DNA of 5,689 nucleotides from a virus. Its lineage: Duplodnaviria; Heunggongvirae; Uroviricota; Caudoviricetes. The notes under the pieces are model-generated. The model had not been told where the DNA came from, did no database searches, and was given only the letters and a program-made list of their open reading frames with translations. Position numbers and translations under genes: made by a program. Location: IMG/VR virus record IMGVR_UViG_2648501150_000009, positions 1 through 5,689 of that record; one strand, written 5' to 3'. Shown here piece by piece: positions 1 through 5,689 of this stretch; within the stretch, counting starts at the first letter, position 1; each line of letters begins with the position of its first letter.

Positions 1-332
1 CCGCCGCGACTACGGCTGCTGTAGCTGCTGCGAACTCTGCGAATATCGCAAACCAACAGGCACAGCGTGCTGCTAATGCATCAGCCAGCGTTCACCCAAT
101 CACCATTAAGAGCAGTAAGCAAAATCTGGGATTCATAACGTGCGGCACGCGTTCTAATGAAGCTGTAGGCTCTCTGGGATGTACGGTATATGGCGATAGT
201 GAGCGCAGAGAAATTCCATGGAAAACGTGGCCCGGATACGTTCTCGGATCGAAGCTCCCTGCCAGCTATGAAGTAAACGCCGTATCGTTTGATCACTATA
301 ACGGCGTGGCAACGGTCTATTTTGCATATTGA
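1..332 (+). CDS. 3' end of an upstream CDS (partial, start lies outside the window); unknown product with an Ala/Gln-rich low-complexity stretch followed by a Cys-containing C-terminal region
   Basis: Frame 3 is open from the window edge for about 110 codons (…AATTAAVAAANSANIANQQAQRAANASASVHPITIKSS…GVATVYFAY) and ends at TGA 330-332, while the other two + frames hit stops within the first 75 nt. The stop sits 9 nt before the next start, matching the tight packing of the operon. No start is visible, so the product is not identified. Confidence 0.5.
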   Translation, partial: AATTAAVAAANSANIANQQAQRAANASASVHPITIKSSKQNLGFITCGTRSNEAVGSLGCTVYGDSERREIPWKTWPGYVLGSKLPASYEVNAVSFDHYNGVATVYFAY

Positions 333-340
333 GGCTCCGC

Positions 341-1126
341 ATGAAATTCTCCAAATTTTCTGAGTTGGTGAATCGTATTTTGTCCAACAACCACAGCCAT
401 CGTCGCGATATGGATGTAACGATCGTTGTTCATTCGCCTGGCAGCATTGGTTCAACACCCTCAGTTGAGGTTAAGTCAATTCGCGCTGGTTTTGATTGGG
501 ATTCCGGGAAAGTGCTGATTTTCCCAGCACAGCCACTGACCACGCTAACACCAGAACAGATTACTGATATTACTGATAGTGTGCGCAAAGGTCAGTCCTG
601 GCACGCATATCAGGAATACAAGAAGCATAAAGAGCAGTTGGAAAAATTATCGATTGAACTTGATACCGCAAAACAGCGCATTGCAGAGCTGGAGGGTAAT
701 CGCGCGGCGCTGGCTGCGGAGAATGCGAGACTGAAGGCGATATGTGAGGATCGCCGCACGTTTATTATGAATGGCGTGCAGCTTGGTTTTATCAAGGTGC
801 CAACAGTGGAAATAGATCCAGCTCTTGAAACAATTCGTATCGCCCTATCACCACAAAAAACCACTCCTGCGACCGACACTTTCCTGGATGAAGTGAAGAC
901 TGAAGCACGCAAGGAGGGCGCTTACTTTGTGGCGAACAGGATGCTGGCTGCTTGGGAAGCTGGTTTTATTGATGATACTGCGAAGAACGCCGCGGATATT
1001 GCCCGGATGATTCTTACCTCTACTGAGTTTATGGCTAATGCGCGGGAAGGCGATTTTGACCGCTCATTCTCTGATGGCGTTCTCGAAGATATCGCCGAAC
1101 AGCTTAGAAAAGGAGGTAAACAGTGA
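341..1126 (+). CDS. Ead/Ea22-like family phage protein (coiled-coil, 261 aa)
   Basis: ATG at 341 is preceded by GAGG (331-334, 6-nt spacer); the TTG at 329 in the ORF track is less likely. The central heptad-like stretch EQLEKLSIELDTAKQRIAELEGNRAALAAENARLKA and the C-terminal tail AEQLRKGGKQ are what I recall for Ea22-like proteins of lambdoid prophages. It is paralogous to the CDS at 5075..5581 (shared AALAAENA core, TD(T/A)FL(D/A)EV segment and QLRKGGxQ tail). Family assignment is from memory, not a search. Confidence 0.6.
   Translation: MKFSKFSELVNRILSNNHSHRRDMDVTIVVHSPGSIGSTPSVEVKSIRAGFDWDSGKVLIFPAQPLTTLTPEQITDITDSVRKGQSWHAYQEYKKHKEQLEKLSIELDTAKQRIAELEGNRAALAAENARLKAICEDRRTFIMNGVQLGFIKVPTVEIDPALETIRIALSPQKTTPATDTFLDEVKTEARKEGAYFVANRMLAAWEAGFIDDTAKNAADIARMILTSTEFMANAREGDFDRSFSDGVLEDIAEQLRKGGKQ
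702..730 (+). repeat. 29-nt near-identical core shared by the two Ea22-like genes (copy 1; 27/29 identical to 5202..5230)
   Basis: gcgcggcgctggcTgcggagaatgcgAga here against gcgcggcgctggcAgcggagaatgcgGga at 5202-5230. Both encode AALAAENA within the coiled coil; the flanking DNA is much more divergent. Confidence 0.8.
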
Positions 1127-1371
1127 GTAATACCGCACGACTACAGCTTGGTTTTTCACCGCTATCAAAAACCATCGTGTTGGCAAAAATGCGTGACTTA
1201 GGGGATGGAACAAAACGTCGTGTCGGCAATGATCGCGGTCGTGATGTAACCAACGAGGCCGCACAACTCGTTTGGCATCTAGTCATGGCTGAAGGCGGTG
1301 AAATTAATTGGGAGCTGGATGATGGTTCTCGCATGGTATTGAAGGCAGAAAAGCAGGAGCCACCACAGTGA
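1123..1371 (+). CDS. hypothetical small phage protein (82 aa)
   Basis: GTG start at 1123 overlaps the upstream stop (GTGA, 1123-1126) and follows a strong SD AAGGAGGT (1110-1117). Intact 82-codon ORF, translationally coupled on both sides. No recognisable domain. Confidence 0.7.
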   Translation: MSNTARLQLGFSPLSKTIVLAKMRDLGDGTKRRVGNDRGRDVTNEAAQLVWHLVMAEGGEINWELDDGSRMVLKAEKQEPPQ

Positions 1372-1643
1372 ATATCGACACCACGATAACAATCGATACG
1401 GCCCTAAATACCGGTCTGGCACTTTTCGGTTGGCTTTACATCATGTCCCGTACCTGGCGATGGCTGGGTTCCATTTTCCTAAAAGAGTGGAAAAAACGGC
1501 GCAAACAGGAACTACGCCAGAAGGCATTAGAAGCGTTCTATGACGCATTTGAGCTTAGCCGCATTGAACCAGGCACAACAGCCAGAATAGCGACAAAAGG
1601 CGACCTGATGATAGTGATGTTCAGACAGGAGAAAACCAAATGA
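1368..1643 (+). CDS. hypothetical small membrane protein (91 aa) with one predicted transmembrane segment followed by a basic stretch
   Basis: GTG start at 1368 overlaps the upstream stop (GTGA) and follows AGGAG (1355-1359). Hydrophobic stretch ALNTGLALFGWLYIMS…WLGSIFL (about aa 12-38) is followed by KEWKKRRKQELRQK, a positive-inside-type arrangement. Confidence 0.7.
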   Translation: MNIDTTITIDTALNTGLALFGWLYIMSRTWRWLGSIFLKEWKKRRKQELRQKALEAFYDAFELSRIEPGTTARIATKGDLMIVMFRQEKTK

Positions 1644-1864
1644 CAGAACAGACGATGACAAATCGCGAACTTGTTGATGCCGCGATTGAACTTGCTGGCG
1701 ATTTTTATTCCATGATGGGTTACGAGCATCGACCTGGTTTTAAGTATTGGGAGTCACCGCATCCGCAAGAACAACAGGTGTTTGAAATGGCCTGCCGTGC
1801 TTTTGAGGTTATTCGCGGTTCTGATGTGATGGATGCCGTTGCCGACGTGGAGGATGAAGAGTGA
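1640..1864 (+). CDS. hypothetical highly acidic small protein (74 aa)
   Basis: ATG at 1640 overlaps the upstream stop (ATGA) and follows AGGAG (1627-1631, 8-nt spacer). By hand count about 17 D/E against 5 K/R, with an acidic C-terminal tail [10 protein letters not shown]. Confidence 0.75.
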   Translation: MTEQTMTNRELVDAAIELAGDFYSMMGYEHRPGFKYWESPHPQEQQVFEMACRAFEVIRGSDVMDAVADVEDEE

Positions 1865-2172
1865 GCATCATTAAAGAAATGCCGGTAGAACGTGATGAAT
1901 ATGGCTGCTGGACACATCCGGAGTATGAAAAGTTTTGCGCAGGTCGTGAATATATATCCACTGAGGAATTTGACGCCTGGATGAAGGAAAATAATCTTCA
2001 GTGGACTATTCGCAGTATGGATGAAGATGATTTTAATCTGGACGCAGATGGTCCCGATATTGCCGCCTGGGAACCAGTGCGACCAGAGGGCGAAGGATGG
2101 TTTGTTGGCTCTATTCATGACACTGAAGATGGCCCAGTTTGTATCTGGCTGCGGGAGAAGGTTGCCGCATGA
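1861..2172 (+). CDS. hypothetical acidic small protein (103 aa)
   Basis: GTG at 1861 overlaps the upstream stop (GTGA) and follows GGAGGA (1849-1854, 6-nt spacer). By hand count about 25 D/E against 9 K/R. Its stop overlaps the phosphatase start (ATGA at 2169-2172). The Trp/Pro/Gly-rich C-terminal part ([17 protein letters not shown]…VCIWL) faintly recalls small phage DUF-type domains, but I cannot assign it. Confidence 0.7.
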
Positions 2173-2861
2173 ACCAGGCGCTGCATGAAGTGAATTTATA
2201 TAGCCGTATTGATGGTTCAGGCTACAGAAACATATGGGTTGTTGGTGATCTGCATGGTTGCTACACCAGACTGATGTCCGAACTCCATCGTGTGGATTTT
2301 GACCCGGCGCAGGATTTACTGATATCGGTTGGCGACCTTATCGATCGCGGCACCGAAAATGTTGAATGCCTGGAGCTATTGCAGATGCCCTGGTTTCGGT
2401 CGGTTATGGGAAACCACGAGCGATTAATGATCGATGCGTTAAGTCCCGCAGGCAATGTGAATAACTGGCTAATGAATGGCGGTCAATGGTTCTTCATGCT
2501 GGACGCTGATCGGGAAATATTAGCCAGGGCGCTGGTGGAGCTGGTAAGACGTCTTCCCTATATCATTGAGCTGAACACCGGGCATGAAACTATCGTTATA
2601 GCCCATGCCGACTATCCAGGTGGAGAGTACCAGTTCGGTAAGGATGTGTCGCTTTTTGATGTTGTCTGGTCGCGCAGTCGCGTCGGTGATTCTATAGATG
2701 GCATTGGTGGAGAAATCACAGGCGCAGATCGCTTTATCTTTGGGCACACATCGGTACGAAGACCAAAAGCATACTGGAATCAGCACTACATAGACACGGG
2801 CGCGGTTTTTTGCGGAAATCTGACGCTAATGCAGGTGAAGGGAGGGCAGCTTAAAGTCTGA
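2169..2861 (+). CDS. serine/threonine protein phosphatase, lambda PPase / PrpA-PrpB-like metallophosphoesterase (230 aa)
   Basis: Canonical PPP-family motifs are all present: GDLHG (nt 2244-2258), GDLIDRG (nt 2331-2351), GNHE (nt 2409-2420), plus HADYP, WSRSR and the C-terminal IDTGAVF. ATG 2169 follows GGGAGAAGG (2153-2161) and overlaps the upstream stop. The TTG at 2139 from the ORF track is rejected as the start. Confidence 0.93.
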
Positions 2862-2897
2862 TCAAATCATTTACGCACTCAAAATTGCATTAGAACA

Positions 2898-2926
2898 TTG
2901 ATTTTAGTTTTCTAACATATTATTTT
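2898..2926 (+). promoter_or_regulatory. candidate sigma70 promoter in the only sizeable intergenic gap (-35 TTGATT 2898-2903, 17-bp spacer, -10 TATTTT 2921-2926)
   Basis: The AT-rich 98-bp gap (2862-2959) between the phosphatase and the 331-aa CDS contains a -35/-10-like pair with 17-bp spacing. It would drive the downstream module. No convincing Rho-independent terminator hairpin precedes it. The hexamer matches are imperfect. Confidence 0.3.
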
Positions 2927-2959
2927 ACCGCTCGGAACAAAACAGAGTCGGTATGCATT

Positions 2960-3955
2960 ATGAGTGCAATAATCACCCCATATGTCGTAAATGAAACTGG
3001 TGTGGCTGTCTTTCCTGTAGATAAGCCCACCAGCAATTACATCGGCACAGGACGCCGTTTTCTTATATCCCCATTGCCGCGTGAACAGGCTGAAAACACC
3101 CCTGATGGTGTCGTTGACCTGAATTATTCACTGGTTGCCAACCAGTCACTGGCACCCTTTTTTCAAAGTGAGCGTGTATTTAACGCGTTAGGTGGTGAGG
3201 ATTCTCTCGTTCACTGGGTTAGCACCAACATTCACGATTGCCAGGCGCATGATAAGCGCGATTGCAGCCACCAGCTAACCACCCATTTCTATAACGGTTC
3301 TGCCGTTCGCCTGTGCTGGAAGCATGATGCGGAATACATGATGAAGGGATACGGCAAGCTGGAAGACCAACTGTCACTGAATCGCGCCAACTGGATTATG
3401 AACTGGGCTGCCAGCGAGTTAAAACTTCCGCCAGATCGCGATCTGAGCATGGTTGAACTCACCTTTTGGGCCATTCGCCGGAATCTTAAAGACGAACTGC
3501 CTGATGAAGCTGGTCGCATTGCATTTTGTCAGCCAAAAACTGAAATCCCTACCGGCACTCTGAAAGAGTCGGATATTACCTGGGAGCATAGTACCCGCGA
3601 GCTGGTGGATATTTCCGCAGAGCAGATCGTCAATCTGTCCGTCGATGAAGATTCTGGCCTCCTATATATGCGCCGTCCAAAAACCTTACTCGGAAAAAGC
3701 CCGGCTTATCTCCGGTTTGTGGTGTCTCGCCCGTGTGTAGGCTGCGGCGGCAAGGTTAATCACCCATTCATGTACCGCGCCCGCTCGTTAAACGAACACG
3801 ACCGCTGGGCTGTTCCTCTTTGCGATGACTGCGCCAGAAGCGCAGAAAACGATGTCCGGGCATGGGAAAAAGCACATGGCATACGCCTTTACGTAGCCGC
3901 TAACCAGCTTTTCGACTTCGCCATTGAGCGCGGAGTGATCACGTTCAATAACTGA
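2960..3955 (+). CDS. phage protein with C-terminal HNH / His-Me-finger-like zinc-binding motif, possibly DUF968 (YdfU-like) family (331 aa)
   Basis: Intact 331-codon ORF with ATG at 2960 and only a weak upstream SD. The C-terminal segment PCVGCGGKVNHPFMYRARSLNEHDRWAVPLCDDCA (nt about 3734-3832) has the CxxC…H…N…CxxC spacing of HNH/His-Me-finger nucleases. The size and context resemble DUF968 proteins of lambdoid prophages. Family assignment is from memory. Confidence 0.8.
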   Translation: MSAIITPYVVNETGVAVFPVDKPTSNYIGTGRRFLISPLPREQAENTPDGVVDLNYSLVANQSLAPFFQSERVFNALGGEDSLVHWVSTNIHDCQAHDKRDCSHQLTTHFYNGSAVRLCWKHDAEYMMKGYGKLEDQLSLNRANWIMNWAASELKLPPDRDLSMVELTFWAIRRNLKDELPDEAGRIAFCQPKTEIPTGTLKESDITWEHSTRELVDISAEQIVNLSVDEDSGLLYMRRPKTLLGKSPAYLRFVVSRPCVGCGGKVNHPFMYRARSLNEHDRWAVPLCDDCARSAENDVRAWEKAHGIRLYVAANQLFDFAIERGVITFNN

Positions 3956-3968
3956 TGGGAACAATGCA

Positions 3969-4262
3969 ATGAGTCAAGGTAATGGTGACGGAGCTGCAAA
4001 GTGCAGAATCTCCACTTGTTTGATTAATGACAAAAAAATAGAACCGTGCGCGGCGTTGGCACAATCTCTGGAGCAGGATGCTGAATACACGACGCGGAAA
4101 GGTCTGCTGAAATACAAAATCTATAACCATGAATTAATTCATTCACAAGACCTGATCATGCTGCGGTCTGGTGAATTTTCTAAATCGCCTATTCGAGTTT
4201 CATTTTGCCCATTCTGTGGTGAAAGTCTGAAAACGTGGGAAGCGGAGGCAACCAGTGAATAA
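3969..4262 (+). CDS. hypothetical small Cys-containing protein (97 aa), possible zinc ribbon
   Basis: ATG at 3969 lies 13 nt after the upstream stop, with a weak GGGA upstream. Cys pairs CRISTC near the N-terminus and CPFCG near the C-terminus. Its 3' end carries the SD and start of the next gene. Confidence 0.65.
   Translation: MSQGNGDGAAKCRISTCLINDKKIEPCAALAQSLEQDAEYTTRKGLLKYKIYNHELIHSQDLIMLRSGEFSKSPIRVSFCPFCGESLKTWEAEATSE
4244..4258 (+). repeat. 15-nt junction motif GGAGGCAACCAGTGA (SD, 6-nt spacer, GTG start overlapping a stop); identical copy at 5567..5581, variant GGAGGTAAACAGTGA at 1112..1126
   Basis: Exact 15-mer identity between 4244-4258 and 5567-5581, and 13/15 with 1112-1126. 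In each case the GTG is the downstream gene start and TGA or TAA closes the upstream gene. The motif sits in different codon phases of the upstream genes (…EAEATSE* against …RKGGNQ*). Confidence 0.8.
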
Positions 4263-4899
4263 CCGCTTTTACATGATGTGCTTGCGTGAAACTGTGGGTA
4301 ATAACGCCTCATTCCATTGCCATAACGGCAATGGTTACAGTTCTGATATCGATCGCGCTCATGTTTACACGCTGGAAGAAGCCCAAAAAGCCTGGAATTG
4401 TGGTCGAGATATCGATCAGCCTGTTTGCGCTGATAGCGTGGATGCAATGGCTGTGTGGCACGTTGATTGCCAGTACATCCCTACAGAAAGCCTGATTGAG
4501 TCAGATTGCACTGCGTATGTGGCCTACAAAAAAGGTAGCTGGAACGGCAACGATGTTTACTGGCTTCAACACGGTGGATTGCCAACCGATGACTTCAGTA
4601 AAGCGACCATCTTTTGCGTCGCCAACAAAAACGAACCAGGAATAGTTTGGTTGCCATTTTCCATTGCTGATGCAGTAAAGCGCCGGACGTTCAATATCAA
4701 TAACTTTAACCGCAGAACAATGGTTCAGGGCGCAGGTTTGGTCATGCCTGACTGGTTGAAAGAGCAGAACAGAAGAAAGAAGTCGCGAAGCGGGAAGGTG
4801 CGTAGGAATTGTCCGCATTGCGGAAAAATCACCTGGCAGTACAGCCCATATGATTTTGAAGGCTGTCGTGATTACAACTGTGAAGGATGGCGAGAATGA
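4255..4899 (+). CDS. hypothetical Cys/His-rich protein with a C-terminal zinc-ribbon-like motif (214 aa)
   Basis: GTG at 4255 follows GGAGG (4244-4248, 6-nt spacer) and overlaps the upstream stop by 8 nt. A basic stretch NRRKKSRSGKVRRN is followed by CPHCGKITWQYSPYDFEGCRDYNCEGW. An internal ATG at 4273 is an alternative start. Confidence 0.75.
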   Translation: MNNRFYMMCLRETVGNNASFHCHNGNGYSSDIDRAHVYTLEEAQKAWNCGRDIDQPVCADSVDAMAVWHVDCQYIPTESLIESDCTAYVAYKKGSWNGNDVYWLQHGGLPTDDFSKATIFCVANKNEPGIVWLPFSIADAVKRRTFNINNFNRRTMVQGAGLVMPDWLKEQNRRKKSRSGKVRRNCPHCGKITWQYSPYDFEGCRDYNCEGWRE

Positions 4900-5078
4900 C
4901 AATTGACTATCAAGAACTGCGCGAGGCAGCGGAACAGGCAACGCAAGATGAATGGGTAGCATATATTTTGCCGGGTCATAACGGCATTTATCCTGCGCGC
5001 ACGTCTGAGGGTAGGCATTGTGCGGATACTTTATTGACTGGCCTGGCGTCTGTCAGGGGCGGGAGAGCATCAACATGA
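4896..5078 (+). CDS. small ORF (60 aa), possibly the N-terminal module of an Ea22-like gene, either a separate gene or a frameshift remnant
   Basis: ATG 4896 overlaps the upstream stop (ATGA) and follows GAAGGA (4882-4887, 8-nt spacer). Its N-terminus MTIDYQELREAAEQA matches the start of the partial gene at 5578 (SEINYQALREVAERA). Its stop overlaps the start of the next CDS (ATGA at 5075-5078). Confidence 0.55.
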   Translation: MTIDYQELREAAEQATQDEWVAYILPGHNGIYPARTSEGRHCADTLLTGLASVRGGRAST

Positions 5079-5581
5079 GCATCAGAACCTACGCAGTGAA
5101 TTGCAATGACGCATGGCTAAACACCGAAGGTGATGACATCTCCGGCTCATACGTTAAGTACAAAGACCATCAGGAAGTGGTTGCCGCTCTTGAGGCCAAG
5201 TGCGCGGCGCTGGCAGCGGAGAATGCGGGAATAAAGTCTGCAATTCCAGAATCACGGGATATTGAAGATGACAATGACAATATGGATGACGTATCTCTCG
5301 CGGAAGACTTCGGGTTCAATCATGCAATAGAACGGATGAGGAGACAGATACCTGAAACACCAACCACTGATGCTTTCCTGGCTGAAGTCCGGGCGCAGGG
5401 GGTGGATGCTGCTATAGAAGCTGCAAAAAATCTGGTGGCCCAAGAATATGAGTATAAGGATTTCAAAGCGGCGCAGAGTGATTGCTGTATGTACCCTGGT
5501 TCAGACCTGGTAGGGAAGGTTGAAATGACTGAGTGGTTAGTTGACTTTGCTGCCCAGCTTCGCAAAGGAGGCAACCAGTGA
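5075..5581 (+). CDS. Ead/Ea22-like family phage protein, coiled-coil plus C-terminal module (168 aa), paralog of 341..1126
   Basis: ATG 5075 is the first ATG in the frame and follows GGGAGAG (5060-5066). It shares VAALEAKCAALAAENAGIKS, TDAFLAEVRAQGV and the tail AAQLRKGGNQ with the first Ea22-like gene. The TTG at 5018 from the ORF track is rejected as the start. Confidence 0.7.
   Translation: MSIRTYAVNCNDAWLNTEGDDISGSYVKYKDHQEVVAALEAKCAALAAENAGIKSAIPESRDIEDDNDNMDDVSLAEDFGFNHAIERMRRQIPETPTTDAFLAEVRAQGVDAAIEAAKNLVAQEYEYKDFKAAQSDCCMYPGSDLVGKVEMTEWLVDFAAQLRKGGNQ
5202..5230 (+). repeat. 29-nt near-identical core shared by the two Ea22-like genes (copy 2)
   Basis: Direct comparison with 702-730 by eye: 2 mismatches in 29 nt. 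Confidence 0.8.
5567..5581 (+). repeat. second exact copy of the 15-nt junction motif GGAGGCAACCAGTGA
   Basis: Identical to 4244-4258; forms the stop of the second Ea22-like CDS and the SD/start of the downstream gene. Confidence 0.8.
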
Positions 5582-5689
5582 GCGAAATTAATTACCAGGC
5601 ACTGCGTGAGGTGGCGGAACGTGCAATTCCAGCAATGGAACGCCTGTTAATGTTGCCAGCTGATGATGACTTGTTAAGTGAACAGGAAC
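5578..5689 (+). CDS. 5' end of a downstream CDS (partial); N-terminus resembles the 60-aa ORF at 4896
   Basis: GTG at 5578 overlaps the upstream stop (GTGA) and follows AAGGAGG (5565-5570). The frame stays open to the window end (VSEINYQALREVAERAIPAMERLLMLPADDDLLSEQE…). Confidence 0.6.
   Translation, partial: MSEINYQALREVAERAIPAMERLLMLPADDDLLSEQE

Follow-up and report, generated by a model that had tools for sequence, protein, structure and literature searches.

Short sequences shared at the joints between phage gene modules have been discussed since the linkers of Susskind and Botstein (1978), and the seven "boundary sequences" of phage HK620 (Clark et al. 2001) belong to the same line of thought; as presented in later papers that cite them (PMC3029335, PMC2327257), both offer a homologous-recombination route to mosaicism. 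Since 1978 it has been disputed whether mosaic joints arise by homologous exchange at such short linkers or by illegitimate recombination followed by selection. Here we describe a 15-mer, GGAGGCAACCAGTGA, that recurs at gene boundaries in a 5,689-nucleotide (nt) stretch of DNA from a virus of the class Caudoviricetes (IMG/VR virus record IMGVR_UViG_2648501150_000009, positions 1 to 5,689). This whole stretch is called the window below, and coordinates refer to it. We consider it probable that the 15-mer serves both as a shared translation-initiation junction and as a short-homology linker between accessory-gene cassettes in temperate phages of Escherichia coli, namely lambdoid or P22-like phages and P1-like phage-plasmids. 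Like the lambdoid boundary sequences as those citing papers portray them, it is a short conserved sequence that stands at junctions between unrelated flanks and is a proposed focus of recombination. It differs from them in acting on single genes rather than on functional modules, in also providing the ribosome-binding site (RBS) and start codon of the downstream gene while lying within the upstream coding sequence in two frames, and in being common to P1-like phage-plasmids and lambdoid phages. The linker concept is old, and the 15-mer is a clear example of this long-proposed kind, at least as far as the sequences of Clark et al. are known through the papers citing them, rather than a new class of element. 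In HK620 itself, the hkaH-hkaG junction has a 14/15 variant, GGAGGCAGCCAGTGA; no boundary-sequence features are annotated in the GenBank record of this phage.

Other described systems share some of these properties. The translationally coupled, overlapping stop/start junctions (ATGA or GTGA) of phage and bacterial operons likewise have a Shine-Dalgarno (SD) sequence inside the end of the upstream open reading frame (ORF), a 4-nt overlap (8 nt in the case of the motif at 4244) and a packed, same-strand operon. Ten of the 12 junctions in the window are ATGA or GTGA overlaps behind a purine-rich GGAG- or GGA-type stretch, and seven junctions other than those with the motif are of the coupled type: six of them overlap by ATGA or GTGA, and the seventh, at 1354-1371, appears to be a degenerate motif relative. 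Ordinary coupled junctions are specific to one gene pair, whereas the 15-mer joins many. Homeologous "shoulders" (Martinsohn 2008; De Paepe 2014) resemble the motif in that they give rise to homology-driven mosaics by way of phage Rad52-like recombinases, but they are moderately diverged (~64-68% identical), whereas the motif patch is 15-36 nt long, nearly identical, and at or below the minimal pairing length.

Exact copies of the 15-mer lie at 4244-4258 (copy A) and 5567-5581 (copy B), and a 13/15 variant, GGAGGTAAACAGTGA, lies at 1112-1126, all on the plus strand; an initial annotation of the window had given these positions and sequences, and all were correct. When up to three mismatches are allowed, the window contains four matches to the 15-mer where 0.17 are expected, and none of 200 dinucleotide-preserving shuffles reached four. 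The expected number of exact 15-nt direct repeats in 5.7 kb, calculated by hand, is about 0.015. The fourth match (3128-3142, minus strand, 13/15) was rejected as a chance resemblance: it lies inside the DUF968 gene and is kept with that gene in all relatives. Likeness between the 1112 copy and copy B reaches about 20 nt upstream of the motif, the segments 1092-1127 and 5547-5582 being ~80% identical. The ORFs that end at these two copies are paralogous (BLASTP 28% identity, E=8e-08, both matching phrog_368 to the last profile position), and the similarity of these copies is therefore partly inherited coding homology. At copy A, neither flanking gene is Ea22-like.

All three copies consist of GGAGG, a 6-nt spacer and GTG, which is standard SD geometry, and in each case the SD sequence lies inside an upstream ORF (341-1126, 3969-4262 and 5075-5581). 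The upstream gene reads GGA GGC AAC CAG TGA at 5567, ending ..RKGGNQ*, and GGA GGT AAA CAG TGA at 1112, ending ..RKGGKQ*; at 4244 it reads G GAG GCA ACC AGT GAA TAA and ends ..EAEATSE*. Thus, the ORF map confirmed the earlier statement that the motif is embedded in different codon phases of the upstream genes (..EAEATSE* against ..RKGGNQ*). The initial annotation had also credited every copy with an SD sequence, a 6-nt spacer, a GTG start and the stop of the upstream gene. The first three are present in all copies, but the stop is supplied only at 1112 and 5567, where the TGA of the motif is the upstream stop and a 4-nt GTGA overlap results (1123-1126 and 5578-5581). At copy A, ORF 3969-4262 continues past the end of the motif to TAA 4260-4262, two bases further on, and has an 8-nt overlap with the downstream gene, GTGAATAA, at 4255-4262. 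Of 51 database contexts in this EATSE frame, 47 have their stop at an offset of 16 or 22 from motif position 1, which corresponds to overlaps of 8 or 14 nt.

According to the ORF map, no possible start codon precedes the GTG of motif positions 12-14 in the downstream ORFs that open at 1123 and 4255. Inspection gives the same result for the GTG at 5578: an in-frame stop lies at 5542-5544, and nothing between the two could serve as a start. Position 1 of the Ead_Ea22 profile aligns to residue 2 of the ORF from 5578, which fits a GTG start, and position 1 of phrog_2457 aligns to residue 1 of the 214-amino-acid (aa) ORF. For the ORF from 1123, position 2 of the DUF7446 Pfam profile aligns to residue 7, so GTG 1123 is the only available start. 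The same GTG starts are placed by RefSeq/PGAP and by the GenBank annotators of P7 and D6. Homology, annotation and geometry thus make a well-founded case that GTG would be used as the start codon and that translation of the neighbouring genes would be coupled.

The exact motif is carried by at least 120 IMG/VR contigs. As controls we used two composition-matched 15-mers with shuffled spacers, which were found in 14 and 85 IMG/VR contigs. Raw abundance was tried as a test against the SD-plus-GTGA composition and rejected as not discriminating; with the second control present in 85 contigs, abundance is the wrong statistic, and flank mixing and ORF context were used instead. In 125 occurrences of the motif, 30 left-flank clusters and 36 right-flank clusters form 80 distinct left-right pairs, and 14 left and 17 right clusters have at least two partners. 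The controls form 11 and 27 left-right pairs, and these strictly co-vary. An ORF of at least 50 codons is opened by the GTG in 112 of the 125 motif occurrences (90%), compared with 7/12 and 19/76 (25%) for the controls. Other junction 15-mers of the window have one or two left clusters each, as against 36 left and 35 right clusters for the motif in the same data set, a comparison that is indicative rather than exact since the set is enriched for motif loci. The same short sequence therefore stands between otherwise unrelated left and right flanks, as a linker should, and samples drawn independently of the motif agree. It is accordingly by flank mixing, and not by raw abundance, that the motif stands out from SD-plus-GTGA composition. 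In a survey of one genome per species, an 18-mer, AAAGGAGGCAACCAGTGA, gave 23 matches, close to the ~17 expected by chance (calculated by hand), with only two in Escherichia, a result that does little more than suggest that the motif is not widespread outside phages of the E. coli type.

Comparison with related phages places break points of similarity at the motif. In megablast searches against phage genomes, many matches have 4244 as their exact first position (among them those to Stx2c phages, P1-like phages and IME10), and the match to D6 stops exactly at 4258. Twelve related loci, picked by overall similarity to the window and not by the motif, provided 65 internal end points of high-scoring segment pairs (HSPs). 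Twelve of these lie no more than 2 nt from the appropriate motif edge, compared with 0.17 expected, and 17 lie inside the three junction patches, compared with 1.27 expected. Around the 1112 copy, five HSPs end at 1127 and three start at 1092 or 1094; at copy B, break points fall at 5549 and 5565. Within the conserved block 1366-3958, no break point was found at the three overlapping junctions (1626, 1849 and 2155), and there was one near the fourth, the intergenic gap 2861-2960. Pairs of database sequences that are alike over 101 nt or more on the left side of the motif lose their similarity 0-3 nt after it in 100 of 272 cases, and pairs alike on the right lose it 0-3 nt before the motif in 68 of 281.

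Whole genes are gained and lost between copies of the motif. Two plasmids (L369 and L370) carry an extra Ea22-like gene between direct repeats of the 1092-1127 patch. In D6 and two further plasmids (L371 and L373) the 214-aa gene (4255-4899) is precisely absent, and the motif leads directly into an Ea22 N-terminus. We found 34 distinct cassette types between two consecutive copies of the motif family, among them an 80-aa gene of the upf87.4 type (253 nt, 52 loci), a DUF7446 gene (241 nt), many Ea22-like genes, one ORF resembling a methyltransferase and another resembling a PAPS reductase. The 97-aa ORF family is itself mosaic at its 5' end (window 3969-4010), many homologues matching residues 15-97 only. 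In P7 (L376, 3969-3983) and 52 IMG/VR loci, a shorter version opens with the GTG that belongs to a copy of the motif family (in P7, GGGGACAACCAGTGA), and this version of the upf87.4-type gene is therefore flanked by the linker on both sides.

There are 34 complete two-by-two rectangles of left and right flanks in the manner of a four-gamete test. Three of them have unrelated flanks in the adjacent 12 nt on both sides, the number being small because ..CGCAAA is common to most left flanks and the Ea22 N-terminal codons to most right flanks. When the left partners are the 97-aa ORF and the Ea22 C-terminus and the right partners are the 214-aa gene, the Ea22 N-terminus and a third gene, every combination is present. 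Alleles at motif position 8 are shared across the same left flanks and across the same right flanks, and so are shuffled with respect to both. Two features expected of boundary sequences, similarity that begins or ends at the short sequence and four-gamete configurations around it, are thus found here. Flank mixing, break points and cassette insertions or deletions in related phages all bear out the initial annotation's proposal that the motif marks points where flanking gene content changes, and this comparative evidence supports its reading of the 15-mer.

One cassette points to exchange between phage groups. The segment 4244-4924, which holds the 214-aa gene, is 97.7% identical to Lederbergvirus vB_EcoP-611R6 (L486, ON470589.1), with homology starting at the motif. 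Judged from this identity, the cassette indicates recent gene flow between P1-like and P22-like lambdoid phages. In their own data set, De Paepe et al. (2014) reported that the lambda-like and P1-P2-Mu groups had made no recent exchange (PMC3945230).

We envisage the following origin and behaviour of the motif. Its ancestral form was probably the boundary of tandem Ea22-like paralogues, made up of the C-terminal codons of one copy and the RBS of the next. The upstream ORF ends in ..RKGGNQ* or in ..EATSE followed by 0-2 codons borrowed from the next gene, and translation of that gene would begin at the GTG, through de novo initiation on the SD sequence or through termination-reinitiation across the 4-, 8- or 14-nt overlap. 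With a patch of 15-36 nt present at many junctions, rare crossovers inside it could swap, insert or delete whole genes. Because a crossover within the initiation region would preserve both genes whichever frame is used, recombinants would be viable, would accumulate, and would spread and homogenise the motif. Candidate agents are annealing proteins (Red-beta, RecT, Erf), RecA, perhaps together with Ref, and the short-homology-dependent illegitimate recombination familiar from the E. coli literature. In P1-like elements (L216 and L366-L375, phage D6 among them) the array lies just downstream of the divergent ref gene, which encodes the Ref recombination-enhancement nuclease, and in P22-like phages (L486 and L487, Lederbergvirus) it lies between RecT/Erf and xis; both are observations of adjacency only.

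A number of observations weigh against the motif being a linker of this kind. Published minimal lengths for efficient pairing are 23-27 bp for Red-beta and 31-34 bp for RecA (PMC3945230), or ~30 bp (PMC2327257), and the exact tract that includes the motif between distally unrelated contexts has a median of 18 nt, with 24% reaching 23 nt. Ea22-Ea22 junctions share ~36-70 nt, too long a patch for the crossover to be assigned to the 15-mer alone. Further clusters of break points lie at junctions that have no motif (336, 1355/1366, 3958-3973 and 4901), so the motif is one of several exchange points, and inside Ea22-like genes (701-736, 863-869, 5181 and 5399-5406), which implies that these genes are themselves built from exchangeable segments. 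The binomial P values for the break points overstate their significance, because the contexts are not phylogenetically independent, and the excess is still large. A break point with a shared patch would equally be expected if genes carried their own RBS or C-terminus and joints were illegitimate and then selected. As regards the start codon, the 214-aa ORF also has in-frame ATGs at codons 7-8.

A bolder version of the linker reading, which we regard as possible and put forward tentatively, is that the motif family is a general-purpose, recombinase-independent "cassette adaptor", providing at once an RBS, a start codon and a C-terminal tail that is tolerated in two frames. If this were so, any crossover inside the motif would yield two functional genes, and single accessory genes would move freely within arrays and between unrelated temperate lineages. 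The motif would then be kept by repeated recombination and second-order selection and not by translation alone, and the K/R-G-E end of Ea22 proteins (see below) would be explained too.

The argument about illegitimate joints can be extended to a full account, the main rival of the linker reading, in which the 15-mer is simply a gene's own RBS or its C-terminal codons and hitch-hikes passively: joints form anywhere, those at gene boundaries survive, and the motif is no crossover site. This is the standard Hendrix-type model, as it is cited in PMC3029335. The motif always accompanies the gene when one side is held fixed, and break points at the motif-less junctions 3958-3973, 336 and 4901, like the shortfall of 15 bases from the published pairing lengths, are what such a model would predict. 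Against it, both flanks vary, in four-gamete rectangles with the motif as the only shared sequence, and the polymorphism at position 8 segregates independently of either flank. Cassette insertions and deletions are bounded by direct repeats of the patch, and other junction 15-mers in the same arrays are not common to different left flanks. Hitch-hiking covers part of the pattern but not the four-gamete sets, the repeat-bounded insertions and deletions or the contrast with other junctions, and we think it unlikely to be the explanation. The 15-mer, read as a linker, has a defined 15-nt core, two frames, many flank pairs, two-sided cassettes and a distribution shared by P1-like and lambdoid phages, and these make it a substrate on which the shortest usable homology could be measured. 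It thereby brings the choice between linkers and illegitimate recombination within experimental reach.

Given that the upstream genes read the motif in two frames, its conservation can be examined at the level of the nucleotide and of the peptide. When 168 distinct database contexts of the exact motif were classified by upstream frame, 76 were GGNQ*, 51 EATSE and 38 ambiguous; a downstream ORF of at least 50 codons begins at the GTG in 153 of them. Two samples were collected without selection for the motif. Among 80 loci found via the 214-aa protein, the start codon is GTG in 79 and ATG in one, and the 11 nt before it match GGAGGCA[A/G/T]CCA in 75 (37 A, 23 G and 15 T), the other five lying within one or two substitutions; at least seven unrelated upstream sequences precede this junction. 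Among 78 loci found via the upstream Ea22-like protein, 70 carry the exact motif, which stands before at least five unrelated downstream sequences. In 0.88 Mb of such motif-independent loci there are 139 distinct contexts at up to two mismatches, compared with ~1.6 expected (calculated by hand).

Substitutions in these contexts peak at position 8 (35/139), which is the second codon position in the GGNQ* frame and changes N to S or I. Positions 10-15 are nearly invariant, the synonymous site 12 included, and there is no third-codon periodicity. The upstream genes in the EATSE frame belong to at least seven unrelated families, among them DUF7446 and a DUF4752-like gene, and although the upstream ORF is a member of the Ead/Ea22 C-terminal family at 5567 and 1112, it is not at 4244 (phrog_4030) nor in at least 51 of the 168 contexts. 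On the evidence of the two frames, the position-8 peak, the fixed synonymous site and the unrelated upstream families, the constraint acts on DNA or RNA and not on the peptide. Conservation for junction function rather than for protein coding, as had been claimed from the window alone, is therefore what the wider set also supports, the samples drawn independently of the motif being the most clear-cut. The last 5-7 residues of EATSE-frame proteins are by-products of the junction, and annotators would be well advised to use the GTG starts and to allow for junction-encoded tails of 5-7 residues such as ..EATSE*. A change of G12 to A (window 4255 and 5578) is synonymous in the GGNQ* frame (CAG to CAA) and makes ATG, and it occurs in only 3 of the 139 contexts. 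Either selection favours the weak GTG start, or recombination homogenises the motif more quickly than mutation alters it.

These data also bear on the view that the motif is kept for the sake of ..RKGGNQ, a peptide that would have a function at the C-terminus of Ea22-like proteins, for example as a tag or in an interaction. Of the three copies in the window, two do end paralogous proteins with ..QLRKGG(N/K)Q*, and Ea22 proteins from lambda and Stx phages have in common a K/R-G-E end, described as being of unknown significance (PMC7093339). We nevertheless judge a peptide-level explanation very improbable, since in at least 51 of the 168 contexts unrelated upstream proteins use the other frame, variation is greatest at a second codon position while third positions and synonymous site 12 are nearly fixed, and the lambda Ea22 end, AAA GGA GAG TGA, is itself SD-like.

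The Ea22 end merits a closer comparison. Dydecka et al. (2020, PMC7093339) described an invariant K/R-G-E tripeptide at the C-terminus of Ea22 proteins, on otherwise unrelated C-terminal domains and of unknown significance. The Ea22-like proteins of the window end instead in ..RKGGNQ* or ..RKGGKQ*, which reads as an embedded SD junction. In lambda (L377, NC_001416; 348-362 of the locus, minus strand) the ea22 gene ends ATC AAA GGA GAG TGA (K-G-E*), a shorter form, AAAGGAGAGTGA, that equals the motif context AAAGGAG[GCAACC]AGTGA minus the six bases GCAACC. No gene starts at this end of lambda ea22, from which it is ~190 nt to ea8.5, and the lambda exo-xis region contains no copy of the motif within three mismatches. 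Another Ea22 homologue ends ACTAAAGGAGAGTGAtATG (..AAAGGAGAGTGAtATG), and there the next ORF does start. These sequences suggest that the K/R-G-E end of Ea22 proteins is most simply read as an SD junction or the relic of one.

The layout of the array recalls, though only superficially, integrons, whose cassettes are mostly single genes that lie between a recurring element (attC) and are present or absent as units, and the motif might on that account be a specific recognition site, whether a recombinase target of the attC type, a site for a regulator or small RNA, a structured RNA or a recoding signal. We hold this to be scarcely tenable. The motif is 15 nt long and of RBS type, it has no attC-like imperfect inverted repeats or fold, and exchange at it is presumably driven by homology. 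RNA around the three copies folds no more stably than shuffled sequences (z = 0.79, 1.04 and -0.19), none of the copies gave an Rfam match at the gathering threshold, and inspection of the motif revealed no slippery heptamer (X XXY YYZ). Integrase and site-specific recombinase genes are absent from the window and from the surroundings of the arrays in the 12 related loci, where there are general recombination genes only. Lastly, a chance or compositional recurrence of a strong SD sequence and a GTGA overlap, for which one could cite the form GGAG-N7-9-RTGA of most window junctions and the presence of one shuffled-spacer control in 85 contigs, is already refuted by the four matches seen where shuffling predicts 0.17, by the 139 contexts where ~1.6 are expected, and by controls that lack flank mixing and open an ORF at the GTG in 25% and 7/12 of cases rather than 90%.

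The window consists of a variable array of accessory genes belonging to a P1/D6/P7-like phage-plasmid that carries lambdoid exo-xis-type genes, Ead/Ea22-like and others; its genes are small, tightly packed and on one strand (Table 1). It is matched best by E. coli plasmids of the P1/D6/P7 type with sizes of 88-97 kb, none of which covers more than 87% of the window, and parts of it are found in 2226 of 5426 complete E. coli genomes. The same cassettes are present in P22-like lambdoid phages (Lederbergvirus), in the region from the recombination genes to xis.

Table 1. Features of the window, in order of position
Feature	Coordinates	Strand	Remarks
261-aa phrog_368 protein (E=3e-59)	341-1126	+	Ea22-like coiled coil; C-terminus ..AEQLRKGGKQ*
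Internal conserved Ea22 patch	681-736	+	coiled coil ..AALAAENA..; repeated at 5181-5236
Extended patch round the 1112 copy	1092-1127	+	..CAGCTTAGAAAA + motif + G
13/15 variant, GGAGGTAAACAGTGA	1112-1126	+	encodes GGKQ* of ORF 341-1126; SD and GTG 1123 for DUF7446 gene
DUF7446 gene	1123-1371	+	Pfam match; downstream of the 1112 variant
Degenerate motif relative, GGAGCCACCACAGTGA	1354-1371	+	DUF7446-DUF4752 junction
DUF4752 gene	1368-1643	+	followed by two unknown ORFs
Metallophosphoesterase	2169-2861	+	from the window ORF map
DUF968 (pdcB-like) gene	2960-3955	+	from the window ORF map
97-aa ORF, phrog_4030, P7 upf87.4 family	3969-4262	+	upstream of copy A; last five codons, EATSE, from the motif
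Copy A, exact motif	4244-4258	+	SD GGAGG 4244-4248, spacer CAACCA, GTG of ORF 4255-4899
214-aa ORF, phrog_2457, P7 upf87.6, "hkaG-like"	4255-4899	+	downstream of copy A
Ead/Ea22-like 60-aa ORF	4896-5078	+	Pfam PF13935 profile positions 2-45
Ead/Ea22-like 168-aa ORF, phrog_368	5075-5581	+	PF13935 positions 48-138, E=7e-11; ends ..FAAQLRKGGNQ*
Partner of the 681-736 patch	5181-5236	+	79% identity over 56 nt
Extended patch round copy B	5547-5618	+	Ea22 C-terminal codons AQLRK, motif, Ea22 N-terminal codons VSEINYQALRE, all conserved
Copy B, exact motif	5567-5581	+	encodes GGNQ* of ORF 5075-5581; SD and GTG 5578 for the next Ead/Ea22-like gene
Ead/Ea22-like N-terminus	5578-5689	+	Pfam profile; cut by the window end

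The array has a single non-coding gap of appreciable size, 2862-2959, which is AT-rich and lies upstream of the DUF968/pdcB-like gene. A simple scan of its plus strand returned no sigma-70-like promoter, and the gap contains no site resembling the P1 C1 operator at up to three mismatches. HSPs of four related loci begin at 1355 or 1366, near the degenerate junction GGAGCCACCACAGTGA. In three plasmids (L371, L372 and L374) DUF4752 follows an Ea22-like gene by way of GGA[A/G]GCAGCCAGTGA, a true copy of the motif family such as GGAGGCAGCCAGTGA.

One Ead/Ea22-like gene of the window is split into two overlapping ORFs (4896-5078 and 5075-5581), with an ATGA overlap at 5075, and RefSeq has two separate coding sequences for it in a near-identical plasmid. 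The 168-aa ORF is widespread in IMG/VR at 100% identity, so the split may be a stable two-gene arrangement rather than a pseudogene. Besides the pair of internal Ea22 patches listed in Table 1, a second pair is recognizable at the DNA level, 863-894 and 5357-5388, which is 75% identical over 32 nt and encodes ..TPxTDxFLxEV...

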